Shown in pieces: positions 12,419 to 33,930 of a stretch of DNA of 64,000 nucleotides. The position numbers were made by a program, and so were the translations under genes. The notes under the pieces were generated by a model. The model was not told the origin of the DNA. It saw only the letters and a list, made by a program, of their open reading frames with translations, and did no database searches. Where the stretch lies: NCBI GenBank assembly GCA_019118505.1, contig DWYU01000084.1, positions 11,563 through 75,562 on the forward strand, given 5' to 3'. Origin of the DNA: Candidatus Oscillibacter excrementavium. GTDB lineage: Bacteria > Bacillota > Clostridia > Oscillospirales > Oscillospiraceae. Positions within the stretch are counted from its first letter, which is position 1, and the number at the start of each line of letters is the position of its first letter.

Positions 12419-12432
12419 GCGGAGGGATCGTG

Positions 12433-14352: not shown

Positions 14353-14384
14353 TGTTCCGCTTCAGACAGCCAGATGCAGTGTCG

Positions 14385-14539: not shown

Positions 14540-14554
14540 CTGCCGCCACCTTTC

Positions 14555-15680: not shown

Positions 15681-18600
15681 ATGTGGAAAAATCGACATGG
15701 GTTCACGCTGGTGGAAATGCTGGCCGTCGTAGCAGTTCTGGTGATTTTGCTGGCGGTGTCTGCGGTGGGGGTCGTCAGGTATCTCCGGCAGACCCGGATT
15801 ACGGAGCTGGACAACGCCGCCCGGGAGATCTATCTGGCGGCCTAAAATCGCGCCATCCTGCTGCAGGGCAGCCAGCGTCTGGAAGGGCTGGTGGTCCAGG
15901 CGGGGAATCGGATCGAGCACGTGGATGTCATTCCGGGGGCAGAGGCCAGCGAGGAGGGGACCACCCAGATCACTGTCTATTACTGCCACAGTCAGGACGC
16001 CGCCATGGAGGACCTGCTGCCCCGGGAGACCATCGAACCCTCCCTGTGGGAGGGGGACTTCTACATCGTCTACGAGCCGGAGAGTGCCAGCGTGGTGGAT
16101 TGTTCTTCTCCCGGGAGACCCTGCCGGTAGGCGGCGATTTTGAGGACTTCTATCAGCAGTGGCGGGCGGCGCCCAGGACCAAGCGGATGGACCAGGACCC
16201 CATGATCGGGTACTTCGGCGGCCAATCCGCTGAGAGCGGCACCTCCATCTCCCTGCGCACCCCGGTCATCAACATCTACAATGAGAACACCCTGTGGGCG
16301 GAGGTCACCTACTGGGTGCCCAATACGATGGCCCTGACAGGTGAAGAGAAAAACGTGCACCTGAATGTGATCCTGACCTATCAAGACGTTCCCGTCACGC
16401 TGGAACCCGAGCAGGCCGAAAACGGCGGCGCCGTGGAGGACGAGGGGATCGTCTATCGGTCCTACACCTATGCCTGGACGCTGGACTCCCTGGAGGACGG
16501 CGCGCAGTTCCGGGATCTCTTTGAAAACGCTGACAATGCGAACACGGACGATCTGACCTTTGGCGGCGACTTTGAACTCACCGCCGAGGTGTCCTATGAA
16601 GGCGGCTCCCTGGTGGTCAACGGCGCCCGCAAGACGGCCTCGGACAACAGCCTCTTTGCCAGAGGCAGCGGGAAAGAGACCGCATACATCGCCTGCCTGC
16701 GGCACCTGCAGAACCTGGACGCCGCATTCTCCGGCGCGGCAGGGAAGACCGCAGCGGAGCAGACCGCTGACATTCCCGCTGTGGAGGGCTATGTGTTCCG
16801 GCCCATCGACAACAACCAGCTCCGGTCCTATGACGGCGGCCGGTATACCATCCGGGACCTGGAGATCGGGACGGACCATGAGAATGCGGGCTTGTTCGGC
16901 GCTTTCGAGGGGACCAAGGGGGTTCGAAATACCCTGACGGGCATCCGTCTGGTGAACACCTCTGTCCGCCAGGAGAATGCGGAGGCCTCCGGTGCCCTGG
17001 CCGGCACGGCCTCCCATGTAAATATCTCGGACTGCCTCGTGTACTGGGAGAACAACGCCGACGAGACCGCCAGCCTCCGGGAGGTGCTGGGGGACAGCGC
17101 CAGCAGCCTGCGCTACCAGATCATCTCCGGTACCGGCTTTGCCGGCGGCCTGGCGGGGAAGCTGTCGGATGCGCAGGTGTCTGACTCCGCTGCCGCCACC
17201 CTGGTCAGCGGCAAAACTGCCGGCGGCCTGGCAGGCCGGGCGGAGAATGTCACCGTCTCCGGTTCTTACGCGGACTGCTATCTGACCGGAGACGCCGCTG
17301 CGGGCCTGTTCGGAAACCTGAATGAGACGGCAACGATCTCCAACAGTTATGCCGCCGGATTTATCGCGTCGGAGGATGGGGATACCGCTGCCGGCCTGTG
17401 CCTGGGCGGCGGAAACGCCACCGTCAGGTGCTCCTACAGTGCCATGCTGTTCTCCAAGGGGAGCGACAACTACCCGCTGTGCGAGGCTGCGGGCAGCGTC
17501 TACGACCAAACCTACTATCTGGACTCTGACCGGTTTGCGGACGATCCTAAAATTGACGGCAGAGCCCTGACCTACGCCCAGCTGACCAATACGGCGCTGT
17601 GGGACAACTTCTTTGGGGGCGCCTTCACCCGGAAGAGCGCGGCGGACTCCCACCCCTATAACCTGCAGACCACGCTGACCCTGACCCGGTACATCTACCC
17701 CGGCCTGCCGGGGCTGACCCACTACGGCGACTGGGGCGCCCAGTTTCAAAACGGGGATCTGGTGTACTACGAGAAATACGCGGACGGGTCTTATGGCTTC
17801 AGCGGCGGCGGTGTGAACCACCTGCAGAATGACCGAACGGTGATTCTGGACGGCTACGCCGTGGCCTATAACGACACGGATTTCAGCGCGTCTCTGGGCG
17901 TTGCGCTGGACATGACGTATCCCACGGAAACCGGCGGCGAGACCACGAAAGGGATTCACTACTCATACGGCAACGGGAATATGTATACCATCACCGGCAC
18001 GAATCCCCTGACCGACCGGGAGGAGACCTACTACCTGCTGCCCCTGCCGGCGGAGATCGTCAACACGGGATACGCCTCCGAGGACTTCTATCAGACCATC
18101 ACCGTTGCTGAGACGGTGGGAGAGAGCCGGACCTATTACTATAACCCCCATTTTGCCAACGTCCCCCTCTCCTACGAGGAGGACCTGGACCTGAGCCAGC
18201 AGGCCGACCATCTCCCGGTGAGTGTGCGCACCCCCCGGCACCTGTACATGCTCAGCCGGTTCGAGACCTATTTCGCCAGCGAACACCAGTATCGCTTCCA
18301 GCAGGAGCTGGCGCTGGACTATACTGCCTACATCGGGTATGACGATGACATTTTTACCGGAAAACTGGTTTCCCAATCCCCCATCGGCGTGGACGGGGAC
18401 GCGCCCTTCCGCTGCACTTACGACGGCGGCGGGCTCGCCATCACCGGCGTCGTGCCTGCTGACAGCGGCAAATCGGACTATGTGGGCCTCTTCGGGTACA
18501 GCTCCGGCGTCATCCGGGATGTGGTCTACCGCATGGAGGATGCGCCCCTCACCCTGACCCGGTCCGGCAGCGACACCACCGTCTACGTGGGCGCCCTGCT

Positions 18601-21600
18601 GGGGAGCAACAGCGGCACGGTCTCCAACTGCGCCGTGTACGGGGTGGAGATCACCGTCAACTGCTACAACTACTCGACAGTCTATCTGGGAGGGCTTGCC
18701 GGAGAAAATCGCGGGTCCATCCGCGCCAGTGCAGCCGAGGCGGCCCGGCTCTACGCCCTGTGTACCATGTCCAACGCCTATGCCGGCGGTTTTGTGGGCG
18801 GCAACCAGAGCGGCGGGCGCATCGAGCAGAGCTACGCGGTGGGCCGGGTCAGCGTCTCCCGGGCCCGGTACGGCGATGTGGCGGCGGCCGGTTTTGCCGC
18901 CAGCAGCCAGGGCACCCTTTCCCGCAGCTACGCTGCCGCGGCCCTGGAGGCGGAGGGCGGCGCGGCCCGGTACGGCTTTGCCGGCGGTGAGAGCGCAAAC
19001 TGCTTCTACCTGGACGGCGGCAACTTCACCTATCGGGATCTGCACTTTGTGGCCCGGTATGAGGACGGCGGCGGGGCCCAGGGCGCGGCCTGGAGCCAGC
19101 TGACGGACAAAAACGGGAAGGCCGCCGCATCCCTGGGCATGGGCTTTGTGGCGGACGAGAACGGCTACCCCTATCCCGCCGCAGTGACGGACGGGGAGGG
19201 CCGGCTCGTGCACTACGGCCAGTGGCCGGAGCCCATGGGCCTGGGGGATTTCGGCGTCTTCTACTGGGAGCGCATGGAGATCGACGGCGCGGATACCTAC
19301 GCCATCAGCGCTATCGCGGCCTTCAGCGACGCAAATCGAACCGAGAAAGTCAGCACCCTGTCCACCGCCCACGGCGACGGCGGCGTGGTGGAGGAGTACG
19401 GCTATGGATATTATTGGTTGGAAGATCAAGAGGTCTCCCGCACCAGCAGCGACATTTTAGGAGGAAACGGTGAAAACCAGGATGCCAATACGGCCCTGTC
19501 CGACTTGATGGAGGGCCGCTATGCCTTCCATTGCTTCAACACCTGGGGCACAACAGAGGAGGACCAGGGGCTCTATCTCTCTGAAATAACTGCCAGCACC
19601 AACAGCACACAGCAGCCGCCCAGCGGCACTTGGACGGTGTCCAGCGGCGGAAGCTCCCTTACCGTCCGACTGAATCCCTTCTTCGCCGATTCCATGTCGG
19701 TGGAGACGGGTAACGACTGGGCGGCAGGGGCGGACGTCCCCACCGCCCGGCCCGGCACGAAGGACAACCCCTACGGCGTGCGGAGTATCCACCAGCTGCA
19801 ATTCATCAACTGGAACCATAAGAACCAGAACACCTCAACTGTCCTCTACAATACTTCTAGTAACCAGCAGGACTTTATGTACCTGTCCTATGTAGCTCAA
19901 ACATTATGGGGTGGTTCTAACGAGGTGGATCGAACGTATTACTGGCTCCAGACCCACGATCTGGATGGCAGCGATGTGGAGGAGTATACTCCAATTGCCG
20001 CCTTCCGGGATGAAACTCCTTGGACGATGGAAACAGGAGCCATGGCCTACGGCTGGTTTGGCGGCAGCTACAACGGAAACGACTATACGATCCAAAACCT
20101 AAATATCTACACAGAAAAGATTAACACCACGGGCTTATTCGGCTTTACCCTGGATGCGGAACTCCAGAACATTATTTTATATGCCCCGGAGGGAGACGGC
20201 CTTATCCGATCTTATAGTCCTGAGGGCGATAACAACTGGTACGCTGTAGGCGCTCTGGTGGGCTTGGCGGCCAACACCGCAGGAAGTGACCGCGTCATCT
20301 CAAACTGCGCTGTGGCTGGCTATGTCATCTTGGACGATAATGGCGGATGCGCCTATGGCGGCGGTGGCGTGGGCGGCTTGGTCGGCATCTGCAATATGGC
20401 CTTGGAGAACTGTACCGCTGTCACGGACATCCGGTTGAACTTTACACATAGCGATAGTGCGCGGAATGTCCGGGCAGGCGGTCTGGTCGGTTCCTGCCAG
20501 CGTGGAATTACCAATTGTTATGCTGGTGGTAGTATCCAGGCAGATCTTAGCGTCAAACAACGTAATTCGAGAGTTCACGCGGGCGGCATTGTAGGCGGGT
20601 ACTTTATGAAAACTTTGCAAATAAACAGAGTTATCATTGGAGCGGATACCGAGGGCTCCACCGGAAGGACCAATCCTACCATTCAAAACTGTTACAGCTA
20701 TGTGAGACTGCCGCGTCAAACTGACCTGCCGGCAAATTCCCATCTGTTCGCCATTGGAGGACGGGGAGAGATTGCATATATGAACGGCAGCTACCGATTC
20801 AATTATAAAAACTGCTACTATCTGGAAAGCTGTCTGACCGGTGCGCCCGGCAATTACCTGGATGTGGGGGCACCCGGCGTATCCGAAGCCAGCTTCGCCG
20901 AGCTCTCCGTCGGCGGCAGCGCCTATGAGGCCCTGCTTGCCGCCCGCTTCGCCCCCGTCACCACCACCACATCCACCGGCGACCCCATCGACGGCCGGTA
21001 CAGCTTCGGCACGGACCGCAGCCTGCTGGGCACCAACTATCCGTTCCCCACCATCCTGACCCAGAGCAGCGACCTGGTGGAGGGCGGCCAGGCCCACGTC
21101 CATTACGGCGACTGGGCGGTCCAGGGCATCCTGCGGGAAAACGGCGCCCTGCCGGTCCAGATGGACCTGTTCGCGGACTACCAGGCAGGAGCGGGCGCCG
21201 TCCGCTCGGAGGAACTGACCCTGTCCAACCTGAGCGGCAGCGGCAGCTGGTCTGCAGCGAGTGCTGACCCGGCGGTGGCGACGGCCAGCCTGGCACATAC
21301 CCAGGCCCAGGGGGGCACCAACACCCTCACCATTAAAGCTCAAGCAGCGGGCAGCACCCAGGTGACCATCACCTATACGGAGAGCGGCCAGACCTACACC
21401 CTGACCATCGACGTGAACGTGACGGCGGACCTGCGCCTGTCGGCGGACAGCGGTGTCCTGGAGATGTTTGTCCAGGAGGAGTCCGCCCAGGCGGCCCTCC
21501 ATTGGACGAATGCCGAGGGGAAGGCTTTGCCGGAGACCCTGACGGACGGCATTGCCGTCTCCGAATTCTCGGCCTCCTACGACATGGGACGCTTTGCCTC

Positions 21601-22090
21601 CGCCTCCGTGGCGGAGGAGGACGGTTCCATCGTCCTCACCGCATCCACCCTGTCGGAGGATGGACCGGCCCAGATGACGGTGACCTACACCTTCACTTAC
21701 CTGGGCCAGACCTACACGGCTTCCAGTGTCCTGAGCCTGGACGTACACCCCGGCTTTGCCCTGACCCCGGTAGAGGCGGCGTTTGCCGGCAGCCAGAGCC
21801 AGCAGACCATCTTTTACGATGGAGCACAAATCGGCTCCATTCAGGTGGGAGGCCAGCAGGTGACGGTCACGGATGTGACCATCACCGGGTTTGAGGACGT
21901 GGAGGGCTTCCGGGAGCAGATCTTCGCCCAGTGGGCGGATGAAGCTCACGGACAGCTGGAGATCGAGGTCTCCCCGCCGGACGGCGTGACTGAGATGACG
22001 GCCTATCTCCGCGTCCAGCTGCGCTTCACCTACGGCGGCTGCACCCACACCCTGTGGCAGAACCTGCCCATCCACATCACCACCAACTGA
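15681..22090 (+). pseudogene. Giant (~2,136 aa if restored) type IV prepilin-like protein with repeated GLUG-like beta-helical modules; interrupted
   Basis: Starts MWKNRHG|FTLVEMLAVV (class III signal, Glu5). In-frame TAA at 15843-15845; 1-nt deletion at 16100/16101 (gat tg ttc) shifts into the 15683-22090 ORF. Confidence 0.8.
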
Positions 22091-22118
22091 CCCGGCGCTC
22101 CGGGAGAGAGGAGACACC

Positions 22119-22886
22119 ATGCTGAACCGCTGCAAGAAAAAACTGAACAGCCGGCGGGGCGCCTCCTTTCTCCTGGCGCTGCTGTTTTTCCTGGTGTGCG
22201 GCCTGGTGGCCTCATCGGTGCTGATGGCGGCCTCCTCCAATGCCGGCCGCAGCCGCAGCAGCCGGGAGGAGCACCAGACGTATCTCACCATCTCCTCGGC
22301 GGTGCGGCTGCTGTGCGACGAGTTGAACGCCGCGGAGTACCGGGGGCGGTATCACTATTGGGAAGTGCCAGTGTATGGGCCCGACGAAGAGGGAAAACGC
22401 ATCCAGATCGGTGTAGAGCGCCATCTGGAGCAGCTGGAGGGTCTCTACCAGTACACGGACGGCAGCGGTGCTGCGGCCCTGAAAGAGAACCTGCTGGATG
22501 ACTTTGACTACATCTTTTCCCAGGAGTTTGTCTCCGTCGAAGCAGGAATTAACACATCTAAACGCTCTGGTCTGACTCCACCGGTGGAGCACACGTTTAC
22601 CATCCAACCGGAGGAGTCCAACACTGACCTGGATACCCGTCCGGTGACGGTGGAACTCCGGGTAGTGGAGGACTCCTACGCCATCGAGCTGACCGCCGCG
22701 CTGGACCAGGGGGATGGAAAGCCCGATTATGTGGTCCGGGCGGAGCTGACGCCAAATGAGACGAAGCCCACTCTGCCGGAGACATTTTCGTCAGACACGA
22801 CTGCCGAGACCTCCCCCATGACCTGGCGGGTGGGCTGGATCATCCCGGGGGCGGCGGAGGAAGAGGAGGCGGCAAGCGGTGGATAA
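22119..22886 (+). CDS. Minor pilin, PilX/GspK-like (no Glu5)
   Basis: KKLNSRRG|ASFLLALLFFLV: basic leader, Gly cleavage site, hydrophobic helix lacking Glu5. Confidence 0.65.
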   Translation: MLNRCKKKLNSRRGASFLLALLFFLVCGLVASSVLMAASSNAGRSRSSREEHQTYLTISSAVRLLCDELNAAEYRGRYHYWEVPVYGPDEEGKRIQIGVERHLEQLEGLYQYTDGSGAAALKENLLDDFDYIFSQEFVSVEAGINTSKRSGLTPPVEHTFTIQPEESNTDLDTRPVTVELRVVEDSYAIELTAALDQGDGKPDYVVRAELTPNETKPTLPETFSSDTTAETSPMTWRVGWIIPGAAEEEEAASGG

Positions 22887-23217
22887 CCTGCGAAAAAAAC
22901 TGAACAACACCAGGGGCGAGACGCTGATCGAGACCCTGGCCGCCATCCTGGTGGCCGCCCTGTCCGTGGCCCTTCTGGTGGGGGCCGTGACCGTGTCCGG
23001 CCAGATCAACCGTCAGGCCCAGGTTTCGGACGAGGACTTCTATGAGCAGCTCACCGCCGCCGAGGCCCAGACACCCCCCGATGATGCAGCCTTTCCGGTG
23101 ACCATCCGGGAGGAAGGGAAAACGGACGCACACATTGGCGCCCGTCTCTACGGCGGGGACGACCTGTATGCCTATGGCCGGGCATCGTCTCCTGCCGGGG
23201 AGGAGGCGGCCCCATGA
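22879..23217 (+). CDS. Minor pilin
   Basis: KKLNNTRG|ETLIETLAAILV, Glu at +5. Confidence 0.75.
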   Translation: MDNLRKKLNNTRGETLIETLAAILVAALSVALLVGAVTVSGQINRQAQVSDEDFYEQLTAAEAQTPPDDAAFPVTIREEGKTDAHIGARLYGGDDLYAYGRASSPAGEEAAP

Positions 23218-23726
23218 GGAAGAAGCTCCGCAGCCGCCGGGGAATGACCCTGGTGGAGATGCTGGCGGCGTCCGTGGTGCTGATCCTGCTGGGGCTGATG
23301 CTCCACACAGGCCTGCTGATGGCCCAGCGCAGTTCCCGCACCCTGACCGGGGAGGCGGAGAACCAGCTGCTGCTGTCCACCCTGTCGGACCTGCTGTCCA
23401 ATGAGCTGCGCTATGCCCGGGACGTGGCGGTGGACGACAGCGGCGCGCTGACCCGCTACACCAGCGTCAACTATGGACGCAACACGACGCTGTCGCTGGA
23501 CGCAGACGGCCAGCTGGAGGCGGGCAACCGGCTGATGCTGCCCTCCGGGGCCTACGGCAACGGAGACTGTCGGATCGATACATGCACCATCACATACAGC
23601 GGCGGGATCTTTCAGGTGAGGCTGGAGGTCTCGGACCGGAGAGGCACCGGCAGTGAGACGACATTTTCCATCCGCTGTCTCAACGCAGAGCAGCCGGATA
23701 TGGAGACGGAGGAAGAGGGAACATGA
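23214..23726 (+). CDS. Minor pilin
   Basis: KKLRSRRG|MTLVEMLAASVV, Glu at +5. Confidence 0.8.
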   Translation: MRKKLRSRRGMTLVEMLAASVVLILLGLMLHTGLLMAQRSSRTLTGEAENQLLLSTLSDLLSNELRYARDVAVDDSGALTRYTSVNYGRNTTLSLDADGQLEAGNRLMLPSGAYGNGDCRIDTCTITYSGGIFQVRLEVSDRRGTGSETTFSIRCLNAEQPDMETEEEGT

Positions 23727-25429
23727 CTTACACAAGACTTGGCGACCTGCTGGTAGGCAGCGGCACCATTACCCAGCAGCAGCTGGAGGAGGCCCTGGAA
23801 GAGCAGAAGAAGAGCGGCAAGCGCTTGGGAACGGTTCTGGTGGAAAACCACATCATTACGGAAAAGCAGCTCATTGAGGCGCTGATGACCCAGCTGGGGC
23901 TGGACTATGCGGATTTGAACGCCATGGAGCTCTCTCCGGAGATGGCCCAGATCCTGCCCAAGAACATCGCCCAGAAATACCAGGTGGTGCCCGTGCGGGC
24001 CACCCGCAGTGAGCTGTATCTGGCCATGGCGGATCCGCTGAACTTTATCGCCATTGAGGAGGTCAGCGCCGCCACACACCGCCAGGTGATCCCCATGATC
24101 GCCACGGAGGCGGCGGTGGAGCGGGCGGTACAGAATCTCTACAGCAACCAGGGCACCCTGAAGGCCATCGAGGACATGCGCCGGGACCTGGCCGGCAGCG
24201 GCTACGGGGCCTCCGCCGCTCCCGTGGACGGCCGGTGGAAGGCCGGCACCGGAGAGACAGATGAAGAGGCCGCCCCCACCATCCGCCTGGTGAACTCCAT
24301 CATTGAGCGGGCCTGCACAGAGAACGCCAGCGACATCCATCTGGAGCCGGTGGGCGACGAGATGCGGATCCGCATGCGCATCGACGGCTCCCTGCGCCAG
24401 ATCATCACCGTCCCCCGGGAGCTGCAGATGTCTGTCATCTCCCGCATCAAGATCATGGCGCAGATGGACATCACCCAGAAGCAGCTCCCCCAGGACGGCC
24501 GCATCGAGATGACCGTCCGGCAGGAGCCCCTGGACCTGCGGGTGTCCACCCTGCCCACCATCTATGGCGAGAAGATCGTCATCCGCCTGCTGCGGCGCAG
24601 CGAGGACATCTCCATCGAGGGCATCGGCCTCCGGGGAGAGAACCGGCAGCGGTTCCTGGACCTGCTGGACCACAATGCGGACGGCATGCTGCTGGTGGTG
24701 GGTCCCACCGGCGCCGGAAAGACCTCCACCCTGTATACCATGATCGACCGCAAGCGGGGGGAGGAGGTCAACCTCATCTCCCTGGAGGACCCGGTGGAGT
24801 ACCACATGGACGGGGTCTGCCAGGTGCAGATCAACGACCGCATCGACCTGACCTTTGCCAACGCCCTGCGCTCCGTGCTCCGGCAGGACCCGGATATCAT
24901 CGCCGTGGGCGAGATCCGGGACGGGGACACCGCCGAGATCGCCATGCGGGCGGCCCTCACCGGCCACCTGGTGCTCTCCACGGTCCACACCACCGACGCC
25001 CTCTCCACCCTGGACCGGCTGCTGGACATCGGCGTGGAGCCCTATCTGCTCTCCAGCGCCCTGCGGGGGATCATCTCCCAGCGGCTGGTGCGCAAAATCT
25101 GCCCCCACTGCAAAAAGCCCTACACCCCGGCCCGGGAGGAGCTGGAGCTGCTGGGCCTGCCGGCAGACGGGAACTACACCTTCTACCGGGGGAGCGGCTG
25201 CTCCGAGTGCTTCCAGACCGGCTATCGGGGACGCACCGGCGTCTTTGAGATCCTGACGGTCACCCCCGCCCTCCGCAAGGCCATCCACGACCGCTCCCTG
25301 CCGGACGTGCAGGCGGCTCTGCGGGCCTCCACCTTCCGGCCCATCCGGGAGGACTGCATCCAGCTGGTGGGGGACGGCGTCACCACGGTGGAGGAAGTAC
25401 TGCACACGATAGGAAGGCAAGACGGATGA
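23723..25429 (+). CDS. pilB: Type IV pilus extension ATPase with N-terminal MshEN domain
   Basis: RLGDLL..Q repeats, ASDIHLEP, PQDGR, GPTGAGKT, EDPVEY, LRQDPD, CPHC/CSEC. Confidence 0.92.
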   Translation: MTYTRLGDLLVGSGTITQQQLEEALEEQKKSGKRLGTVLVENHIITEKQLIEALMTQLGLDYADLNAMELSPEMAQILPKNIAQKYQVVPVRATRSELYLAMADPLNFIAIEEVSAATHRQVIPMIATEAAVERAVQNLYSNQGTLKAIEDMRRDLAGSGYGASAAPVDGRWKAGTGETDEEAAPTIRLVNSIIERACTENASDIHLEPVGDEMRIRMRIDGSLRQIITVPRELQMSVISRIKIMAQMDITQKQLPQDGRIEMTVRQEPLDLRVSTLPTIYGEKIVIRLLRRSEDISIEGIGLRGENRQRFLDLLDHNADGMLLVVGPTGAGKTSTLYTMIDRKRGEEVNLISLEDPVEYHMDGVCQVQINDRIDLTFANALRSVLRQDPDIIAVGEIRDGDTAEIAMRAALTGHLVLSTVHTTDALSTLDRLLDIGVEPYLLSSALRGIISQRLVRKICPHCKKPYTPAREELELLGLPADGNYTFYRGSGCSECFQTGYRGRTGVFEILTVTPALRKAIHDRSLPDVQAALRASTFRPIREDCIQLVGDGVTTVEEVLHTIGRQDG

Positions 25430-26490
25430 ACATTTTTGACGAGATTACCATGGCCCGGCAGGCCGGGGCCAGCGACCTCCACCTGGTGCGGGGCCTGCCG
25501 CCCCGGTGCCGGGTGGACGGGGCCCTGCGGGACCTGGAGGAACGCCCCCTCACCGCCGAGGACTGTCTGGACGCAGCCCGGACCCTGGCCGGGGAGGACT
25601 TCCCCCGGCTGGAGGAGGATGGGGAGCTGGACCGGTCCGCCACCCTACAGGGGGTGCGCTGCCGGCTGAACCTGTTCCGACAGCAGGGGACCTACTCCGC
25701 CGCCGTCCGCCTGCTCAGAGACTGCATCTCGGACCTGGAGGAGCTGGGGCTCCCGCCGGCGGTGGGGGACTTCCTGGACTACAGCCGGGGGCTGATCCTG
25801 ATCACCGGCGAGACCGGGTCCGGCAAATCCACCACCCTGGCGGCCCTGCTCCAGCGCATCAACGAGACCCGCCGCCTCCACATCCTGACCCTGGAGGACC
25901 CGGTGGAGTACCTCTATCCCGCGGGACTGTGCACCATCAACCAGCGGGAGGTGGGCCGGGACACCCGGAGCTTTTCCTCCGGGCTGCGCGCCGCCCTGCG
26001 GGAGGACCCGGACGTGATCCTGGTGGGGGAGATGCGGGACCTGGACACCATCCAGACCGCCCTGACGGCGGCGGAGACCGGCCACCTGGTGTTTGCCACC
26101 GTCCACACCCAATCCGCCGCGGACGCGGTGGACCGGATCGTGGACGTGTTCCCCGGGGAGCGGCAGCAGCAGATCCGCTTGCAGCTGTCCATGACGCTGC
26201 GGGCGGTGCTGTCCCAGCAGCTGCTGCCCCGGCGGGACGGCCCTGGCCGGGTGCCCGCCTGCGAGGTGATGCGGGTGGACGGCGCTATCCGCAACCTGAT
26301 CCGGGAGGGCAAGACGCCGCAGATCCGCAACGCCATCCAGACCACCGGCGCGGTGGGCAACATCCTCATGGAGCGGGCGGTGCAGAATCTCTTTCAGGGG
26401 GGCGCCATCTCCCGGGAGACCATGGAGCGGGCCCTGCAGGGCCTGCCGGACGCCGGGCCTCTGGCCGGCGGCATGAAGCCGCGGCTGTGA
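25426..26490 (+). CDS. pilT: Type IV pilus retraction ATPase
   Basis: ASDLHL, GETGSGKST, EDPVEY, ALREDPD, ETGHLV, AIRNLIRE motif. Confidence 0.92.
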   Translation: MNIFDEITMARQAGASDLHLVRGLPPRCRVDGALRDLEERPLTAEDCLDAARTLAGEDFPRLEEDGELDRSATLQGVRCRLNLFRQQGTYSAAVRLLRDCISDLEELGLPPAVGDFLDYSRGLILITGETGSGKSTTLAALLQRINETRRLHILTLEDPVEYLYPAGLCTINQREVGRDTRSFSSGLRAALREDPDVILVGEMRDLDTIQTALTAAETGHLVFATVHTQSAADAVDRIVDVFPGERQQQIRLQLSMTLRAVLSQQLLPRRDGPGRVPACEVMRVDGAIRNLIREGKTPQIRNAIQTTGAVGNILMERAVQNLFQGGAISRETMERALQGLPDAGPLAGGMKPRL

Positions 26491-26502
26491 GGAAAGGGGG
26501 AA

Positions 26503-27714
26503 ATGCAGATGCCGACCTATCACTATGAAGCCCTGCGCCAGAGCGGCGAGAAGGGGGAGGGCGTGGTGGAGGCCGCCAGCCGGGACGCGGCGGTGGCCCA
26601 GATCCGCCGGAGCTATGAGGTGGTTCTGTCCATCAAGGAGCTCCCTGCCCGGCGGGAACAGCCCTTCACCCATTTCCAGCGGCTGAACCTGAAGGTGTTC
26701 GCCCTGATGTGCCGCCAGTTCTCCATCATCCTCAAAGCCGGGCTGCCCCTGGTGCAGACGGTGGACCTGGTGGCCTCCCAGATGACCGACCGGCTGCTGC
26801 GGCGGATCCTGACGGAGGTGTCCGAGGACATCGCCGGCGGCTGGAGCCTGTCCGCCAGCTTTGCCAGGCGGGGGCAGAATCGGCTGCCCCAGGCGTTTCT
26901 GGAGACGCTCCGCTCCGGCGAGGAGTCCGGCGACCTGGCCCAGTCCTTTGCCCGCCTGAGCACCTACTACGAGCGGATGAACAGGACCCACGCCAAGGCG
27001 GTGAGCGCCCTGGTGTACCCGGCGTTTTTGCTGGTGGTGGCGGCGGTGGTCATCGTGATCATCATGGCCTACGCCGTGCCCACCTTCTCCGCCACCTTTG
27101 CCTCCCTGGATCTGGAGCTCCCCCTGGCCACCCGGATGGTCATTGCCGTGTCCGACTTCTTCGGGCGCTACGGCTGGCTGGTGGCGGGGGTGATCGCGGC
27201 CCTGGTGGTGCTGATCCGGCTGTACGGCCGCACCAGAGACGGCGCCGCCCAGCTGGGCAAGCTCCGGCTGGCCCTGCCCATTCTGGGGCCCCTGGCCCTG
27301 ATGACCTCCGCCAGCCAGTTTGCCCACACCATGTCCGCCATGCTCACCGCCGGCACGCCGATCCTCCGGGCGCTGGAGACCTCCGCCCGGGCGGTGGGCA
27401 ACGCCTACCTGTCCCGGCAGATCCGGGAGGCGGTCCCCGGCGTGGAGGCGGGCGGCTCCCTGGGGGAGTGCCTGCGCCGGTGCCCGGACCTGCCGCCCAT
27501 GCTGGTGCAGATGACCGCCATGGGCGAGACCACCGGCACCCTGGAATCCACGTTGGAGATCCAGGCGGAGTATTACGACAACGAGGTGGACACCCTCACC
27601 GCCCGGGCCCTCAGCCTGCTGGAGCCCATCGTCATCTGCCTGATGGCGGTCATCGTGCTGGTGATCCTGCTGTCCATCTATCTGCCCTTGTTCTCGATGT
27701 ACGCCGCCATCTGA
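26503..27714 (+). CDS. pilC: Type IV pilus platform protein (GspF family)
   Basis: Two T2SSF repeats: GEESGDL...LxYPA and GETTGTL...LEP. Confidence 0.9.
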   Translation: MQMPTYHYEALRQSGEKGEGVVEAASRDAAVAQIRRSYEVVLSIKELPARREQPFTHFQRLNLKVFALMCRQFSIILKAGLPLVQTVDLVASQMTDRLLRRILTEVSEDIAGGWSLSASFARRGQNRLPQAFLETLRSGEESGDLAQSFARLSTYYERMNRTHAKAVSALVYPAFLLVVAAVVIVIIMAYAVPTFSATFASLDLELPLATRMVIAVSDFFGRYGWLVAGVIAALVVLIRLYGRTRDGAAQLGKLRLALPILGPLALMTSASQFAHTMSAMLTAGTPILRALETSARAVGNAYLSRQIREAVPGVEAGGSLGECLRRCPDLPPMLVQMTAMGETTGTLESTLEIQAEYYDNEVDTLTARALSLLEPIVICLMAVIVLVILLSIYLPLFSMYAAI

Positions 27715-27777
27715 CGGCCGCGTTTTCTAGAGCAAACATTCAGCCGGCATGTGTCCGGCGGGTTGGGAGGAAATGAT

Positions 27778-28170
27778 ATGGGACCTTGTGAAAAACTGCG
27801 GAGCCGCAGGGGCTTCACCCTGATTGAGATGCTGATTGTGGTGGCCATTATCGCCATCCTGGTGGCCATCTCCATCCCCCTGGTGAGTTCCAGCCTGGAA
27901 AAGGCCCGGGTGGCTACGGACCAGGCAAATGAGCGGGCTGCAAAAGCCGCCGCTGTGATCTATATGCTGACCAATGATGAGTATGATTGGAATAATAAAG
28001 GCGGCGGTCAGTCTTTGTTGTACGACGCAGAAAGCGGACAGTTGGTCAAGTCTACCCCAGAAACTATCCAGCAGATTACGCCCTACGGCCAGAGCAAAAA
28101 CAACAAAGGTAAGATTATCCAAGTAAACTTCGGCGGGGACTACAGCAGCATAACAATCACATGGGACTAG
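27778..28170 (+). CDS. Type IV pilin (paralog 1)
   Basis: RSRRG|FTLIEMLIVVAIIAILVAISIP; 130 aa. Confidence 0.9.
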   Translation: MGPCEKLRSRRGFTLIEMLIVVAIIAILVAISIPLVSSSLEKARVATDQANERAAKAAAVIYMLTNDEYDWNNKGGGQSLLYDAESGQLVKSTPETIQQITPYGQSKNNKGKIIQVNFGGDYSSITITWD

Positions 28171-28328
28171 GCCCCACAGCTCAAACCCTAACCCGTGATC
28201 CCACTCTCCAGGCCTGAAACGGGCCGGAGGGTTTGCATAGAGGGGCGGCCACTCCCGCCCTGGAACCCCTAGCGGATCAATATTTAACCATCTGCCGGGA
28301 GACCGGTAATATTATGAGGAGGAAGAAC

Positions 28329-28778
28329 ATGAAAAACCTGCGTGAAAAAATGAGAAGCCGGAAGGGCTTCACCCTGATCGAGATGCTGATCGTGGTGGCT
28401 ATCATCGCTATCCTGGTGGCCATCTCCATTCCCCTGGTGAGTTCCAGCCTGAATAAGGCTCGGATCGCCACCGACCAGGCTAACGAGCGGGCCGCTAAAG
28501 CCGCTGCTGTTATTGAGTATCTGACGGGAAATAATGCAGGAAAAGACTATGTGGGCTACTACGATGCGGAAAATGGCAAGCTTGTTGTTGGATTTAATGA
28601 CGTCAAAACCAAATACGGTCAGTGCGCCACCCACGATGGCTGCATCCTGAAAGTTACGGTCGCAGGGACAGATGGAACCGTGACCCTTGAATGGGTCGAC
28701 AGTGCCGAAGGCAAAGCAAAAGGCTCCCTTCACGGCATCGCGGGCGGCGATGGGACTGCCACTGGCGGCGGTAACTAA
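28329..28778 (+). CDS. Type IV pilin (paralog 2; candidate major pilin)
   Basis: RSRKG|FTLIEMLIVVAIIAILVAISIP; strong RBS gaggagg; single Cys pair in the C-terminal part. Confidence 0.9.
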   Translation: MKNLREKMRSRKGFTLIEMLIVVAIIAILVAISIPLVSSSLNKARIATDQANERAAKAAAVIEYLTGNNAGKDYVGYYDAENGKLVVGFNDVKTKYGQCATHDGCILKVTVAGTDGTVTLEWVDSAEGKAKGSLHGIAGGDGTATGGGN

Positions 28779-28950
28779 TCCTACTGAACCATTCCCAACG
28801 GCAGGCGGCCTAGGCCGTCCGCCCCTGCCGGGGACCGGGCGGGTGGGCCCGGCCCCGGCGGGGAGAGACGCCTTTGCGGGGTGCCGAAAATTTCGGCGTC
28901 CGGCAAAAGCCCCTCTCCCAAACCCTGCGAAAAAAGGAGAGACTTCCACC

Positions 28951-29742
28951 ATGGACAGCGAGACATTGCTGACAATTTACGCCGCGGTGTGGCTGGGGGT
29001 GCTGGGGGCGGTGCTGGGCAGCTTCCTGGACTGCGCCGCCGCCCGGTACGCCGCCGGGGGCGGCTGGCTCCCCCGGGGCCGCTCCCGGTGCGACGCCTGC
29101 GGCCACATCCTGGGGGCCGCCGACCTGATCCCGGTGGTGAGCTGGCTGCTCCGCCGGGGGCGGTGCCGGTACTGCGGGGCGAAGATCCCGGCGGACTGCC
29201 TGTGGGCGGAGCTGGCCGGGGCGGCCCTGTTCGCCGGCCTGACGGTGCGCTTCGGCCTGACGGCGGAGCTGGCCATGTGGCTCCTGCTGGGGGCGGCGCT
29301 GCTGGCCCTGGCCCTGGTGGACGGGCGCACCCATGAGATCCCCAACGGCATCCTGCTCTTTGCCGCGGCGGTGCGGCTGGCCTTTCTGCCGCTGATGGAC
29401 GTCCCGGTCCTGGAGCAGCTGGCCGGTATGGCGGTGGGGGCCCTCAGCGTGTCGGCGCCCCTGCTGGTGCTGTCCCTGGTGATGGACAAGGCGCTGGGGC
29501 GGGAGAGCCTGGGAGGCGGCGACCTCAAGCTGCTGTTCGTGCTGGGGCTGTATATGCGGTGGCCGGAGATGCTGCTGCTTCTGCTCCTGGGCTGCCTGCT
29601 GGCCCTGGTGTGGGCCCTGCTGCCGGGCCGGGACCGGCGGCGGGAGATCGCCTTCGGCCCCTTTCTGGCGGCGGCCTGGGCGCTGACGGTTTTGTTCGGT
29701 GACGGGCTCATCCAGTGGTACCAGAGCCTGTTCGTCTTTTGA
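28951..29742 (+). CDS. pilD: Prepilin peptidase/N-methyltransferase
   Basis: GSFL, SRCDAC, RGRCRYC, D---HEIP, GGGDLKL, FGPFL. Confidence 0.9.
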   Translation: MDSETLLTIYAAVWLGVLGAVLGSFLDCAAARYAAGGGWLPRGRSRCDACGHILGAADLIPVVSWLLRRGRCRYCGAKIPADCLWAELAGAALFAGLTVRFGLTAELAMWLLLGAALLALALVDGRTHEIPNGILLFAAAVRLAFLPLMDVPVLEQLAGMAVGALSVSAPLLVLSLVMDKALGRESLGGGDLKLLFVLGLYMRWPEMLLLLLLGCLLALVWALLPGRDRRREIAFGPFLAAAWALTVLFGDGLIQWYQSLFVF

Positions 29743-29759
29743 GAGAAGGAGAATACGAG

Positions 29760-30779
29760 ATGGAGAGAAAAATCAGACTGGCCTTTGACGTGGGCAGCAG
29801 CGCCATGAAGGTGGCCCTCTGGCGGGGAAAGACGCTGGAACTCCACGAGGTGCCGCTGCCTGAGAACCTGATGGACGGGGACACGATCACCATGCCCCAC
29901 GCCTTTTCCGGCTTCCTGAAGGCCAAGCGGAAGGAGCTGCGGCTCCCCGGCGGCCCCGCGGCCCTGGTGCTGCCCCGGAGCCGCTGCCTCTGCCGGATGG
30001 TGACCCTGCCCCGGATGACCATTGAGCATCTGGAGCTGAACCTGCCCTATGAGTTCAACGACTTCATGCACGACGACCCCAGCAAATACTACTGCGACTA
30101 CGCCGTGTGCCGCCGGCAGGAGCCGGCCGGGGAGGAGGAGCCCCAGGAGATGACTCTGATGACGGCGGCGGTGGAGCGGCAGCTGGTGCAGGATGCCATC
30201 CGGATGTTTGCCGACGGCGGCTTCTCCCTGCGGAAGATCCTGCCCCAGGAGATGGCGCTGATCCAGCTGGTCCAGACCCGCCAGGCGGCCCATCCCGACG
30301 ATTCCAGGGAGTTCTGCTTCATCGACCTGGGACAGCAGTCCACCATGATCTCCCTGATCCAGGACGACCGGCTCCAGGCGGAGCGGCAGGTGCCGGTGGG
30401 CTGCCGGGACCTGGACGAGGCCGTGGGCGAGGCGCTGCATATCGACGCCAGACTGGCGGACTCCTATAAGCGGGCCAACCAGGAGGATGTGCTGCACCAT
30501 CCCCTGTGCCGCGGGGTCTACGACCGGATCGCCGTGGAGACGCTGAAGGTCATCAACTTTTACCGGTATACATACCGCCAGAATCAGCTGCAGGGCGTGT
30601 ATCTGATCGGCGGCGGGGCCAATGTCCAAATCCTGCGGGAGACGCTGGCGGAGCGGATCGACCTGCCCGTCCTGCCGGTGACCGATTTGGTGCCCGCCGG
30701 CTTCAGCCCGGGGCTGGAGAGCTCCTGCGCCTATGCCGCGGGGGCGGCAGTGCGAATGGAGGAGGTGAGCGGGCGATGA
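29760..30779 (+). CDS. pilM: Pilus assembly protein PilM (actin-like)
   Basis: AFDVGSSAMK, IDLG, VGCRDLD, YLIGGGA. Confidence 0.8.
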   Translation: MERKIRLAFDVGSSAMKVALWRGKTLELHEVPLPENLMDGDTITMPHAFSGFLKAKRKELRLPGGPAALVLPRSRCLCRMVTLPRMTIEHLELNLPYEFNDFMHDDPSKYYCDYAVCRRQEPAGEEEPQEMTLMTAAVERQLVQDAIRMFADGGFSLRKILPQEMALIQLVQTRQAAHPDDSREFCFIDLGQQSTMISLIQDDRLQAERQVPVGCRDLDEAVGEALHIDARLADSYKRANQEDVLHHPLCRGVYDRIAVETLKVINFYRYTYRQNQLQGVYLIGGGANVQILRETLAERIDLPVLPVTDLVPAGFSPGLESSCAYAAGAAVRMEEVSGR

Positions 30780-31369
30780 ACTGGAACCGCAACATGAGCC
30801 GGGAGGAGTGGAAAAAGCGCCGCGCCTATCCCTCCAAGCGGACCATGAACCTGTATTACCGGGAGGACCGGACGGCCCGCCCGGCCACGGTGCTGCTGTA
30901 TGTGCTGTTCCTCCTGGTGGTGCTGGGCGCCCTGGGCAAGGTCCTGATCTTCGACCCCCTGCAGGAGATCGACCGCCTGGAGGCGGAGGCCGTCCGCCTG
31001 GAGGAGCAGAGCCAGGCCGCCCAGGCGCAGCTGGCGGACTACCCGGAGGTGCTGGAGCGCTACACCCGCTACGCCCCCACCCAGGAGGAGCTGTCCCTCA
31101 CGGACCGGATGGCCGTGCTGGACCTCATCGACCAGGTGATCCGCCCGGCGGCGGAGATCTCCCAGGTGACCATCCAGGACCAGCAGGCGCTGGTGACCTT
31201 CTCCGGCGTCACCCTGGTGGAGACCGCCGGACTGGTGGCCCAGCTGGAGCAGTCGGAGCTGGTGGCCCATACCACGGTGAGCACCGCCGCCTCGGAGGAT
31301 GGCCGGCAGAATATCGTGGACGTGAATCTGTTCATAGACCTGACGACGGGAGAGGAGGCCGCACCATGA
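30776..31369 (+). CDS. PilN-like alignment protein
   Basis: MNL motif, one TM helix, coiled coil; located between pilM and a pilO-like gene. Confidence 0.65.
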   Translation: MNWNRNMSREEWKKRRAYPSKRTMNLYYREDRTARPATVLLYVLFLLVVLGALGKVLIFDPLQEIDRLEAEAVRLEEQSQAAQAQLADYPEVLERYTRYAPTQEELSLTDRMAVLDLIDQVIRPAAEISQVTIQDQQALVTFSGVTLVETAGLVAQLEQSELVAHTTVSTAASEDGRQNIVDVNLFIDLTTGEEAAP

Positions 31370-31911
31370 AAAAACTGACCATTCGGGAGCGGGTGCTGCT
31401 GGGGATCTTGGCGATCCTGGCCGTGGTCTGCGGCTATGTGTTCCTGTTCTACCTGCCCGCCGCGGACCGGACCGCCGGGCTGGAGGCCAGCATCCAGCAG
31501 AGCACCGCCATTCTGGACCAGAGCGCGGCCATGCTGGCCAGCCAGGAGAAGATGGAGCAGGAGCTGGACGCGCTGCTGTCCGGTGAGCAGGCACCGGAGG
31601 AAATGCCGTACTATGACAATATCCAGAGCATCATGGTGGAGCTCAACGGGATCCTGTCCGACGCCCAGGAGTACAGCCTGCGGTTCTCCTCCGCCCAGGG
31701 AGAGGACCACGTGATGGAGCGCCGGGTGACCATGCCCTTTACCTGCTCCAGCTACGCCACGGCCAAGTCGATCCTGCACCGGATTCAGGAGAGCGCGCTC
31801 CGCTGCCAGCTGGAGGATCTGTCCTTTTCCCAGCGGGAAAACGGGGCTGTCCAGGTGACGGTCACCGTGGTGTTCTATGAGTACCAGGCCGGCGGCGCCG
31901 AGGGGAACTGA
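31366..31911 (+). CDS. PilO-like alignment protein
   Basis: LTIRERVLL N-terminus, TM helix, coiled coil, C-terminal ferredoxin-like strands; position in the operon. Confidence 0.65.
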   Translation: MKKLTIRERVLLGILAILAVVCGYVFLFYLPAADRTAGLEASIQQSTAILDQSAAMLASQEKMEQELDALLSGEQAPEEMPYYDNIQSIMVELNGILSDAQEYSLRFSSAQGEDHVMERRVTMPFTCSSYATAKSILHRIQESALRCQLEDLSFSQRENGAVQVTVTVVFYEYQAGGAEGN

Positions 31912-32082: not shown

Positions 32083-33930
32083 ATGCAGAAGACATCTTTC
32101 ATTTATGTCGCTGGCAATCCGGCGCTGTATCCGCTGGAGTATTATGACCCAGTCAGCCAGGAATACCGCGGGGCGATCCCGCGCCTGCTGGCGGACTTCG
32201 CCGCCAAATGCGGCTATAACCTTGTCTACTGTCAGCCGGGCGCCGCGGATAGGCGGCGGGAGCTTGCGGAAGATCCCAAGGTGCAGGTCATCTCCGGCGT
32301 GGCAAGCGGCGAGCACTTTCCCGGAAGCGCCGGGGCGCTCACGCTTTACCGGACGGAGGCTGCCGGGACCGCGGCGGAATACGGACTGGTGTTCACTGAG
32401 ACCGCGCCGGAGGCCTTTGTCCGTGCGCTGACCGGCTATGCCGCGGAGCGCGGGGAGGACGCCGCCATGGGCGAACTCCTGGCCGCGGTGGAGGAGCCGC
32501 TGTCAGGGACCGCCCATGCGCTGCCCGCCGGCTCCGCCTCCGGGGAGAGAAGAAGCGTGCCAATGGACGTCCTCCTGACGGTGAGCCGGTGGGAGGAGCG
32601 GCAGCTCGAAGCGGAGCGGGAGCTGGACGCCTGCACGGGGCTCTGTAATCAAACGGGGCTGGAGCGGCTGTTCCGGGAGACGGTCCGCGAAGAGGACCGC
32701 GGGCGCTACGCGATGTTCTGCTTCCACTTCGATTTGTGGCACATTGAGCACGTCGGCGGCCCCGGGGCAGCGGAGGAGTTCCTCCGGTATGCCGCGGGGG
32801 CGCTGCGCCGCAGCGCCCCAGGGGGAGCGGCCCTGGCGCGGGGCGACAGCGGCGACTTCTTCCTGCTGTGCCGGGCGGACAGCGCCGACACGGCGCGGGA
32901 CTGGGCCCGGCGTATGCTGGATGCCGTCCAGACAGCTCCCTGTGCGGGGGTGCCGGGCTCCTGCCGCGACGCCAGTGTCGGCATCGTTCCCCTGGCCTCC
33001 TGCGGGTGCGACTGCCGGCAGGGGATCTATTACGCCCGCCAGTGCGCGGTCAACGCGGGATGCAGCAGCCAGCAGGTGAAGATTTGCGGCGCGCACGACT
33101 GCGGGATCTGCGAAGAGCAGCGGGAACTGCTGGCAGACCTGGAGCAGGGGCTCCGGTCAGGGGACTTCCGGCTGTATCTGCAGCTCATCGTGCGGGCAAA
33201 GAGCTTTGAGATCGCCGGCGGCGAGGCGCTCTCGCGCTGGATGCACCCGGAGCGGGGCTTGCTGAACCCGGACCGGTATATTCCTCTGCTGGAGCAGGAA
33301 GGCAGGATCGAACCGCTGGATTTCTACAATCTGGATCAGGCGTGCAGCTTTCTGGAACAGCTGCACAAGAAACACCAGGGGGAGTTCTTCCTCTCCGCCA
33401 ACCTGTCCCGCCGGTCGTTCCTGCGGGCGGAGCTCGTGCAGCGCTGCCGGGAGATCGTTGAACGATATGAGTTCCCACGCCATGAGCTCATGATTGAAAT
33501 CACCGAGAGCGGATGTGTCCGCGGGGAGGAGATCGAGCGGCTGCGGAAGAATATCCAGGCCGTGCGGTCGCTGGGCATACGGGTCATGCTGGATGATTTC
33601 GGCATGGGCTATACCACCTTTCACGATCTGCTGGAGTTCCCGATGGACGGCCTGAAGCTTGACAAGAGTCTGGTGGACAGGCTCAGCACGGAACCGGGCA
33701 AGATCGTCCTGGGCGGCATCATCGATACGGCCCACAAGCTGGGGCTTTCCGTCCTGGCCGAAGGGGTGGAGGAGGAATGGCAGGTAGACGAGCTCCGCCG
33801 GATGGGCTGTGACCTGCTGCAGGGCTATCTCTTTTCGATTCCGCTGCCCGCGTCGGAGGCGATGCGCCGCATAACCGGGCGGGGGAACAGACCGGAGGAA
33901 TCCGCAAAGATCGTCTGGAAGCGGGATTGA
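32083..33930 (+). CDS. Degenerate-GGDEF + EAL domain protein (probable c-di-GMP phosphodiesterase) with an N-terminal SBP-like segment
   Basis: EALSRW, EITES, LDDFG, LKLDK, AEGVE, LQGYLFS; the GGDEF position reads DSGDF. Confidence 0.85.
   Translation: MQKTSFIYVAGNPALYPLEYYDPVSQEYRGAIPRLLADFAAKCGYNLVYCQPGAADRRRELAEDPKVQVISGVASGEHFPGSAGALTLYRTEAAGTAAEYGLVFTETAPEAFVRALTGYAAERGEDAAMGELLAAVEEPLSGTAHALPAGSASGERRSVPMDVLLTVSRWEERQLEAERELDACTGLCNQTGLERLFRETVREEDRGRYAMFCFHFDLWHIEHVGGPGAAEEFLRYAAGALRRSAPGGAALARGDSGDFFLLCRADSADTARDWARRMLDAVQTAPCAGVPGSCRDASVGIVPLASCGCDCRQGIYYARQCAVNAGCSSQQVKICGAHDCGICEEQRELLADLEQGLRSGDFRLYLQLIVRAKSFEIAGGEALSRWMHPERGLLNPDRYIPLLEQEGRIEPLDFYNLDQACSFLEQLHKKHQGEFFLSANLSRRSFLRAELVQRCREIVERYEFPRHELMIEITESGCVRGEEIERLRKNIQAVRSLGIRVMLDDFGMGYTTFHDLLEFPMDGLKLDKSLVDRLSTEPGKIVLGGIIDTAHKLGLSVLAEGVEEEWQVDELRRMGCDLLQGYLFSIPLPASEAMRRITGRGNRPEESAKIVWKRD

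Follow-up and report, generated by a model that had tools for sequence, protein, structure and literature searches.

A complete monoderm type IVa pilus operon of an Oscillibacter-like gut bacterium, headed by a disrupted gene of a predicted giant modular minor-pilin family

We analyzed a stretch of 64,000 nucleotides from Candidatus Oscillibacter excrementavium (GenBank assembly GCA_019118505.1, contig DWYU01000084.1, positions 11,563 to 75,562 of the forward strand), referred to below as the window; positions are counted from its first letter. A type IVa pilus operon of the monoderm type, complete and including a retraction ATPase, occupies positions 15681 to 31911; its source is an Oscillibacter-like bacterium of the gut. 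The operon opens with a pseudogene that belongs to a family of very large pilin-like proteins (the giant family, its product here being the giant). Judged from the sequences, this family is genuine, and its pilin head is always fused to a large passenger. We regard it as an uncharacterized and extreme variant of the modular-pilin principle, of which an intact allele exists in the same species.

An earlier reading, made from the letters of the window alone (the sequence-only reading), had proposed that the first minor pilin of the operon is a giant of ~2,100 aa. In the window this protein does not occupy one frame, as it is interrupted by a nonsense codon at codon 55 and a single-nucleotide deletion at codon 141 (Table 1). 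The sequence-only reading alluded to a disruption when it asked for the protein to be reconstructed and for work on a strain whose gene is intact, but its title is silent on this. Three-frame translation places the true start at ATG 15681 in frame 0, which reads into the TAA in the context IYLAA*NRAILLQ; past this stop frame 0 stays coding up to approximately position 16100, and frame 2 is coding thereafter. The mechanically derived open reading frame (ORF) of 2,135 aa (15683–22090) opens with ~140 out-of-frame codons rich in Arg and Gly and is therefore misleading for annotation. A pseudogene label is due, while fragments of the gene are now annotated separately, for instance as "GLUG motif-containing protein."

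Alignment of the DNA with four related contigs showed that an intact relative (in L075) has CAA at codon 55 and GATGTGTTC (GATGTG) at the site of the deletion. Three independent contigs of the same species also carry the TAA, one of them together with the deletion, and as identical lesions are found in independent samples, the lesions are real. The codon TAA ends two neighboring genes, and no tRNA, hence no suppressor tRNA, was found within the window; taken together with the shared lesions, this identifies the gene as a pseudogene, and neither as a sequencing artefact nor as a case of recoding. Reassignment of the stop codon is ruled out by the same use of TAA and the same lack of a tRNA in the window. 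Phase variation is ruled out as well, since the nonsense mutation is a point substitution and the deletion lies outside a repeat tract; the only lesion that represents a slip is a third one, G4 to G5, present in other strains. Because the two lesions cut the signal for export and assembly off from the passenger, no functional giant pilin can be produced in this genome.

Lesions were tabulated for the window and 14 same-species contigs. Codon 55 is TAA in 12 of the 15 sequences that cover the site (window included), and the deletion at codon 141 is also present in L076, L077, L080, L081, and L083–L086 and absent from L073, L074, L078, L079, L082, and L087. Cluster look-ups yielded an intact allele of the same species, P0185, which encodes 2,136 aa and has 99.2% identity with the window protein once the lesions in the latter are repaired. 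Its contig (L082) shows 99.61% DNA identity with window positions 5681–24527 over 18.8 kb, and the sole gap is the base that the window lacks. When the states are written as codon 55/codon 141/G-run near codon 1297 (window 19545–19548), L082 is CAA/G/G4 and thus fully intact, L087 is CAA/G/G5, and L073, L074, and L079 are TAA/G/G4. The window and L076 are TAA/deletion/G4 (L080 has the TAA and the deletion, with the G-run outside its coverage), and L083–L086 are TAA/deletion/G5. The extended G-run of L083–L087 is the commonest frameshift of the species and occurs on CAA and TAA backgrounds alike.

Among the public contigs of the species, most have between one and three lesions, mixed in a way that reflects recombination, and as all four combinations of codon-55 and G-run states exist, the lesions must recombine or recur. 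The allele with all three lesions, P0171, recurs in 49 blocks of the collection, where its contigs have a coverage of 9–17x; in RefSeq it is called a "GLUG motif-containing protein," with an uncultured Oscillibacter sp. as the source. Additional frameshifts are present in P0004, P0186/P0189, and P0188. Another allele, P0003, matches the intact allele at 95–100% identity outside a mosaic block that covers spacer B and the third GLUG module (58–94% identity per 100 residues; window ~19300–21000, residues ~1200–1800 of the giant), and this looks like a recombinational replacement of the distal module. We read the overall pattern as recent, repeated loss of the giant in a recombining population. 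Between strains with a broken giant, PilB shows 0 non-synonymous versus 8–12 synonymous differences. That the other genes of the operon are intact and conserved while giant alleles are broken suggests that pilus assembly can do without the giant, which would be an accessory adhesin that is lost again and again. The species offers a natural experiment, with alleles that range from intact to triply broken, that bears on whether the giant is needed for assembly or for adhesion only.

A protein search with the giant gave 443 matches, of which ~100 are full-length with 36–73% identity. Many of the matches carry PF07963 (N_methyl) and PF07581 (GLUG), and their names are generic, some being "type II secretion system protein" in the source. 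Relatives are encoded in 238 GTDB species genomes, mostly of Oscillospiraceae from the gut of human, mouse, rabbit, and chicken, and cultured isolates are among these; Intestinimonas sp. HCP28S3_D6, Lawsonibacter sp. LCP25S3_E2, and Ruminococcaceae bacterium AM07-15 are examples of isolates in which the gene is intact. We fetched 72 GTDB loci and counted the ORFs of at least 1,900 aa (n = 61). These orthologues measure 1,921–2,859 aa (median 2,247), and 60 of the 61 begin with a basic leader followed by G/F[TS]xxE, where the slash marks the predicted processing site; the exception is truncated by the end of its contig. At a threshold of E <= 1e-30, a profile of the N-terminus (first 362 positions) matched 996 clusters at 50% identity; every match lies at the N-terminal end of the target, and the largest database relative that it matched has 3,213 aa. 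The fusion of pilin head and passenger in one protein, as envisaged by the sequence-only reading, thus holds for the long ORFs of the relatives and for the intact allele of the same species.

We also considered how else such a protein could be held at the surface. No hydrophobic segment was found past residue 60 in 59 full-length orthologues, a sortase-like motif was present in one of the 59 (a chance LAVTG with no anchor behind it), and Pfam found no SLH domains. The giant family therefore lacks the features of a sortase- or SLH-anchored surface adhesin, and the orthologue scan and Pfam agree with the earlier remark that the giant has no LPxTG motif, SLH domain, or second transmembrane segment. 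Looked for in the orthologues, neither a separate Sec signal or wall anchor nor a separate gene for the pilin-like start was found. The gene order giant, 255-aa, 112-aa, 170-aa, pilB, pilT, pilC, pilA, pilD, pilM, pilN, pilO is kept in ~50 loci, so that the survey bears out a four-gene module beside pilBTC-pilA-pilD-pilMNO. The machinery block lies upstream instead in ~8 loci, where the four pilin-like genes are still together. Two degenerate loci in other species depart from the general picture: at L048 (a metagenome-assembled genome (MAG) of Anaerofilum sp.) the giant gene continues from its start for ~760 codons and is then joined to the last part of pilD, implying a large deletion of the passenger plus pilB through pilA, and in L067 (a Hungatella-labelled MAG) the giant is split over three frames.

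In order from the N-terminus, the intact giant is predicted to comprise a class III signal with a pilin head, then a beta-sandwich, then three GLUG modules that are paralogues of one another and separated by spacer domains, and lastly three immunoglobulin-like (Ig-like) domains. The signal, MWKNRHG/FTLVEMLAVVAVLVILLAV, comprises a basic leader that ends in Gly, a hydrophobic stretch, and Glu at position +5. Pfam scores the N_methyl match of the giant at 28.5 bits (cut-off 21.2), and the orthologue P0005 matches TIGR02532 with 21 bits versus 16.3. The N-terminus was modeled with AlphaFold2 (AF2) on the first 365 aa of P0005, a 73%-identical orthologue, with a predicted local distance difference test (pLDDT) score of 83.2; the model shows a 54-residue helix (20–73) and a four-stranded sheet, followed by a beta-sandwich. 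As self-BLAST of the giant revealed no internal repeats, hhalign of sub-profiles was needed, and this showed the three GLUG modules to be mutually paralogous (96–99% probability). The motifs HYG[DQ]W and YPFP are conserved at the module ends. For the last 746 residues, AF2 gave an all-beta model (pLDDT 89.9, predicted template modeling score 0.81) that combines a lengthy series of short strands with a small domain and three Ig-like sandwiches. In Foldseek, the best PDB matches of this model are to proteins with Ig-like domains in tandem (SbsC, titin, cadherins, FdeC, and PrgB); as these Ig-like matches dominate the fold search, a solenoid-like fold of the GLUG module can be suggested from its strand pattern only.

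Class III signals are present in each of the four proteins encoded 5' of pilB (the giant and the proteins of 255, 112, and 170 aa). The sequences agree in this with the sequence-only reading, including its observation that one of the four lacks Glu5. Four-member minor-pilin sets are known in type II secretion, type IVa pili, and Com pili. By analogy, the clustered set described here, with its one member without Glu5, matches these sets (of the GspH-I-J-K, FimU-PilV-W-X, or ComGD-G type). The 255-aa protein resembles GspK, PilX, and ComGG in one respect, the lack of Glu5, and has no match in Pfam or NCBIfam. At lenient thresholds of Pfam and NCBIfam none of the four proteins could be assigned to the H, I, J, or K family; the sub-threshold N-terminal matches are to ComGD (21.6 bits), ComGF (18.2), XpsI (16.5), and PilX_N (12.5). 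The gene for the 255-aa protein (22119–22886) is a hot spot of diversity among near-identical strains: compared with L074 its non-synonymous rate (dN) is 0.096 and its synonymous rate (dS) 0.15 (dN/dS 0.63), and the small pilin genes that flank it have 1–6 differing sites only.

Modular pilins were defined by Raynaud et al. (2021; PMC8179133), who described >1,200 proteins with 264 architectures, the extreme case having 860 residues. Such proteins combine an N-terminal IPR012902 with at least one non-filament domain, and the giant has PF07963 together with PF07581 and with modeled Ig-like and GLUG modules. Dataset S1 of the same study contains the architecture IPR012902-IPR011493 (N_methyl + GLUG), with 6 proteins. 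These are the same two signatures that Pfam finds in the giant, and the six proteins very probably belong to the giant family. The entry is listed and read there as a putative M26 peptidase, and size, repeats, synteny, and distribution are undescribed in that work (PMC8179133). A search of the literature library yielded no description of the giant family, its size, or its synteny, or of pili in these genera. To call the locus an undescribed system, as the sequence-only reading did, is nevertheless too strong, because the principle of modular pilins is in print and Dataset S1 already includes the N_methyl-GLUG architecture. What sets the giant family apart is its size, 2.5–4x that of the 860-aa modular pilin, and its near-universal presence at pilus loci throughout a dominant family of gut bacteria.

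The closest characterized counterparts are the modular minor pilins of Streptococcus sanguinis, PilB with a vWA module and PilC with a lectin module (PMC8179133; PMC9934059). Like the giant, these belong to a monoderm type IVa pilus with PilT, start with a class III signal, join a small pilin module to an adhesive non-pilin passenger, and are encoded in the pilus operon alongside other minor pilins. They differ in the passenger, which is one domain of ~300 aa in S. sanguinis and ~2,000 aa in the giant (three GLUG modules, spacers, and three Ig-like domains), and sequence similarity is limited to the alpha-1N segment. The predicted partner set of the giant is also unlike that of S. sanguinis, as it consists of four pilin-like genes with one that lacks Glu5. 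Another parallel is the PilY1/PilC tip adhesin with the GspH-K-like FimU-PilVWX (Treuner-Lange et al., 2020; PMC7541494), where a very large adhesin is likewise combined with four tip minor pilins that prime assembly, one without Glu5. PilY1, however, is a non-pilin that docks by a beta-propeller, whereas the giant has a pilin head of its own, and there is no secretin or outer membrane here. CofB of enterotoxigenic Escherichia coli and TcpB of Vibrio cholerae (PMC5207764) are minor pilins with C-terminal beta-domain extensions that initiate assembly and are located at the tip; unlike the giant they have ~500 aa, belong to diderm type IVb pili, and carry unrelated extra domains. Finally, the tapirins of Caldicellulosiruptor (bioRxiv 10.1101/359786) are Firmicute adhesins encoded beside a type IV pilus locus, which recalls the adhesin-like giant, and the N-terminus of the tapirin NCBIfam model weakly resembles a pilin alpha-1N; they differ in being cellulose binders of ~600–700 aa with another fold and no GLUG motif, and their status as pilus subunits is unsettled.

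We consider the following mechanism for the intact giant probable. The protein would be inserted via Sec, with its passenger outside the membrane, and PilD would cut it after Gly7. Through its alpha-1 helix and head it would then join the three co-encoded minor pilins, one of them without Glu5, in a complex that starts each filament, and by virtue of this association it would end at or near the tip of the pilus. There the non-enzymatic, adhesin-like passenger of ~2,000 residues would be displayed and be pulled by PilT-driven retraction. The data establish the gene content, the lesions, membership in the family, the fusion of head and passenger, the synteny, the lack of another anchor, and the folds as predictions; the processing by PilD, the incorporation in the pilus, the place at the tip, a role in adhesion, and why the gene is lost are our inferences.

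Several points weigh against this mechanism or against the loss that we propose. No experiment or structure is known to put any member of the giant family in a pilus, and the head of the giant cannot be assigned to the GspH, I, J, or K class. Foldseek of the N-terminal model against the PDB gave Ig-like matches to the second domain only and no solved pilin, so that the head is left unclassed, and profile searches of the PDB with the whole protein and with the N-terminus matched the alpha-1N segment only. The promoter scan of the window found no sigma-70-like promoter 5' of the giant gene. A tip passenger of ~220 kDa must cross the peptidoglycan, and we know of no mechanism for this. Between lesion-bearing strains, the body of the giant has a dN/dS of ~0.3 and not ~1, which is unlike a long-dead gene and is the chief observation at odds with simple decay; this fits a very recent loss, or a recombinational import of selected variation as indicated by the four lesion combinations and the mosaic block.

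The main rival holds that the giant is a pilin-anchored surface protein that never enters the filament. It would be a PilD-processed, pilin-like membrane anchor or a stationary part of the assembly site, with a beta-solenoid and Ig-like stalk that spans the wall and presents the adhesin on the cell body, whether or not filaments extend. The hydrophobic alpha-1N is indeed the sole membrane-associating element of the giant, its passenger is an elongated all-beta array like wall-spanning adhesin and S-layer stalks, and the strong constraint on the other pilus genes after loss of the giant is expected if the latter is unneeded for assembly. Against it, Glu5 and the pilin head are conserved in 60 orthologues, the giant always accompanies the three other minor pilins, even where the machinery block lies elsewhere, and in S. 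sanguinis the characterized modular pilins PilB and PilC are built into the filament (PMC8179133). On balance we think this arrangement unlikely.

Still less probable is that the passenger is cut from the pilin head and released or passed to the wall, the apparatus working like the piston of a type II secretion system. The operon has all parts of a dynamic filament machine and the motifs HYG[DQ]W and YPFP at the module ends are conceivable processing sites; yet neither a protease domain nor a known cleavage motif was found, the two genes for abundant major pilins and PilT indicate true retractile pili, and no data point to release.

The GLUG motif (PF07581) occurs in proteins of the IgA1 protease family, which would favor a passenger that is a pilus-borne M26-type metallopeptidase. 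The IPR012902-IPR011493 architecture has been described as a predicted M26 peptidase (Raynaud et al., 2021; PMC8179133). This is very unlikely here, because an HExxH motif is absent from all 153 members longer than 2,000 aa; in addition, Pfam finds the GLUG motif only and no peptidase family in the giant, and the models consist of beta repeats and Ig-like domains. Just as improbable is a window giant that still functions, the lesions being assembly errors or being bypassed by read-through or frameshifting, or the body being translated separately from an internal start: more than 2,000 codons are open downstream, dN/dS is ~0.3, and GTG and ATG starts follow each lesion, but the same lesions occur in independent samples with good coverage, TAA is a normal stop with no suppressor tRNA in the window, the deletion lies outside a slippery or homopolymer context, a body without the signal would remain cytoplasmic, and sister alleles accumulate more lesions.

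If the giant is a filament subunit, as in the mechanism that we favor, it stretches current ideas of the cargo that a pilus can carry and makes the family a candidate colonization factor of Oscillospiraceae, with passage through the wall as a mechanical problem. To our knowledge, very little work has been done on type IV pili in Gram-positive commensals of the gut. We put forward only tentatively the wider idea that giant GLUG pilins are the main tip adhesins of the type IV pili of gut Oscillospiraceae and accessory to assembly, that their repeated loss within one human-gut Oscillibacter species is adaptive (for instance as escape from antibodies or phages at the tip), and that the variable third GLUG module and the hypervariable partner without Glu5 mark the exposed surface. 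The giants would then be the largest known class of pilus subunits, raising the question of how a ~220-kDa passenger passes the Gram-positive wall.

The rest of the operon is that of a type IVa pilus with retraction, with PilB, PilT, PilC, PilD, PilM/N/O, and a major pilin at one locus (PilN and PilO as putative members; Table 1). Its 13 genes, all on the plus strand, code for the four pilin-like proteins, for PilB, PilT, and PilC, for two paralogous major pilins, and for PilD and PilM/N/O. The row is compact, with overlaps of 4–8 nt or short gaps, and so bears out the co-directional, mostly overlapping operon of the sequence-only reading. Its calls of PilB, PilT with AIRNLIRE, PilC, PilD, and two pilins were likewise right according to the Pfam and NCBIfam scores. 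Within PilMNO, PilM is supported by PilM_2, and PilN and PilO are putative assignments from weak matches and from position and synteny.

Table 1. Positions of the giant gene, its lesions and predicted domains, and the other genes of the locus (window coordinates; a slash within a peptide marks the predicted processing site).
Feature	Position	Strand	Basis
Giant modular minor-pilin gene, disrupted (pseudogene)	15681..22090	+	reconstructed 2,135–2,136 aa; 99.2% identical to intact P0185
Class III signal peptide (MWKNRHG/FTLVEM) and alpha-1 helix, codons 1–54	15681..15842	+	N_methyl match; AF2 helix 20–73 in orthologue
In-frame TAA, codon 55 (CAA, Gln, in intact alleles)	15843..15845	+	DNA alignment
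Region after the TAA	15846..16660	+	AF2 model of P0005: strands 87–154, then sandwich 190–330
1-nt deletion between 16100 and 16101, codon 141 (GAT-GTG-TTC to GAT-TGTTC)	16098..16103	+	frame 0 to frame 2
GLUG module 1, P0185 residues ~330–690, C-terminal HYGDW	16667..17749	+	hhalign of sub-profiles, motif positions
GLUG module 2, residues ~850–1185, C-terminal HYGQW	18227..19234	+	hhalign; Pfam Glug 18.8 bits at 1031–1057
GLUG module 3, residues ~1367–1815, C-terminal HYGDW	19778..21124	+	AF2 all-beta, many short strands; hhalign
Three C-terminal Ig-like beta-sandwich domains	21167..22087	+	AF2 model; Foldseek
255-aa pilin-like protein without Glu5 (G/ASFLLALL)	22119..22886	+	position +5 Leu or Met in 50/60 orthologues
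112-aa minor pilin (G/ETLIE)	22879..23217	+	Glu5 in 59/60 orthologues; weak ComGF and XpsI matches
170-aa minor pilin (G/MTLVE)	23214..23726	+	N_methyl 17.7 bits; Glu5 in 55/62 orthologues
PilB assembly ATPase, N-terminal MshEN c-di-GMP-binding domain	23723..25429	+	T2SSE 418 bits, MshEN 69.8 bits (Pfam); NF053729 72.2 bits, cut-off 38
PilT retraction ATPase	25426..26490	+	TIGR01420 406 bits, cut-off 319; AIRNLIRE in sequence
PilC platform protein	26503..27714	+	T2SSF 195.5 bits, two repeats
Major-pilin-like gene 1 (G/FTLIEML)	27778..28170	+	N_methyl 36.7 bits; TIGR02532 36.1 bits
Major-pilin-like gene 2, paralogue of gene 1	28314..28778	+	N_methyl 37.2 bits
PilD prepilin peptidase	28951..29742	+	A24_N_bact 78.7 bits, Peptidase_A24 48.5 bits
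PilM	29760..30779	+	PilM_2 47.7 bits
PilN-like bitopic protein (putative)	30776..31369	+	position and synteny, place kept in related loci; no significant match in Pfam search
PilO-like protein (putative)	31366..31911	+	T2SSM 25.9 bits, just below cut-off 27.8; synteny
EAL protein with degenerate GGDEF domain, directly 3' of pilO	32083..33930	+	EAL 208 bits, GGDEF 22.1 bits

The two tandem major pilins are nearly identical over their first ~55 mature residues and differ in their globular ends; they resemble the heteropolymer of two major pilins reported for S. sanguinis. The MshEN domain of PilB (23723–23900) and the EAL/GGDEF neighbor suggest that pilus assembly is controlled by cyclic di-GMP (c-di-GMP), and the EAL/degenerate-GGDEF protein is a possible c-di-GMP input to PilB. 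A promoter-like site (31955–31984) was found near the gene for this protein, and the genes further downstream are those of ordinary metabolism. A GGDEF gene lies immediately 5' of the giant in L075, and many related loci have EAL homologues 7–9 kb upstream.

A search of Rfam with the whole window and with the 5' region of the giant gene (15000–15750) gave no c-di-GMP or other riboswitch and no family match. A hairpin of 11 bp with a T-rich tail (15613–15642, ~40 nt 5' of the giant start) could be a leader structure or an attenuator. Approximately 150 nt 5' of the start (window 15521–15532; compare L074:1068-1295), we observed an A+T-rich indel polymorphism of 238 nt that is bounded by the 12-nt direct repeat GCGGCATCTGGG. 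The segment is present in L073, L074, L079, L081, and L083–L086 and absent from the window, L076, L078, L080, L082, and L087, and its state does not follow whether the giant is intact or broken. It holds a TATAAT and a hairpin followed by a T-run, and could carry or block a promoter.

Because the G+C content of this part of the window is 57–68%, long spurious ORFs are abundant. Very long ORFs without a family match overlie real genes, for example at 36796–41061 on the plus strand and at 16070–17959 and 20300–22291 on the minus strand, among others; these are high-G+C shadow ORFs and not genes.

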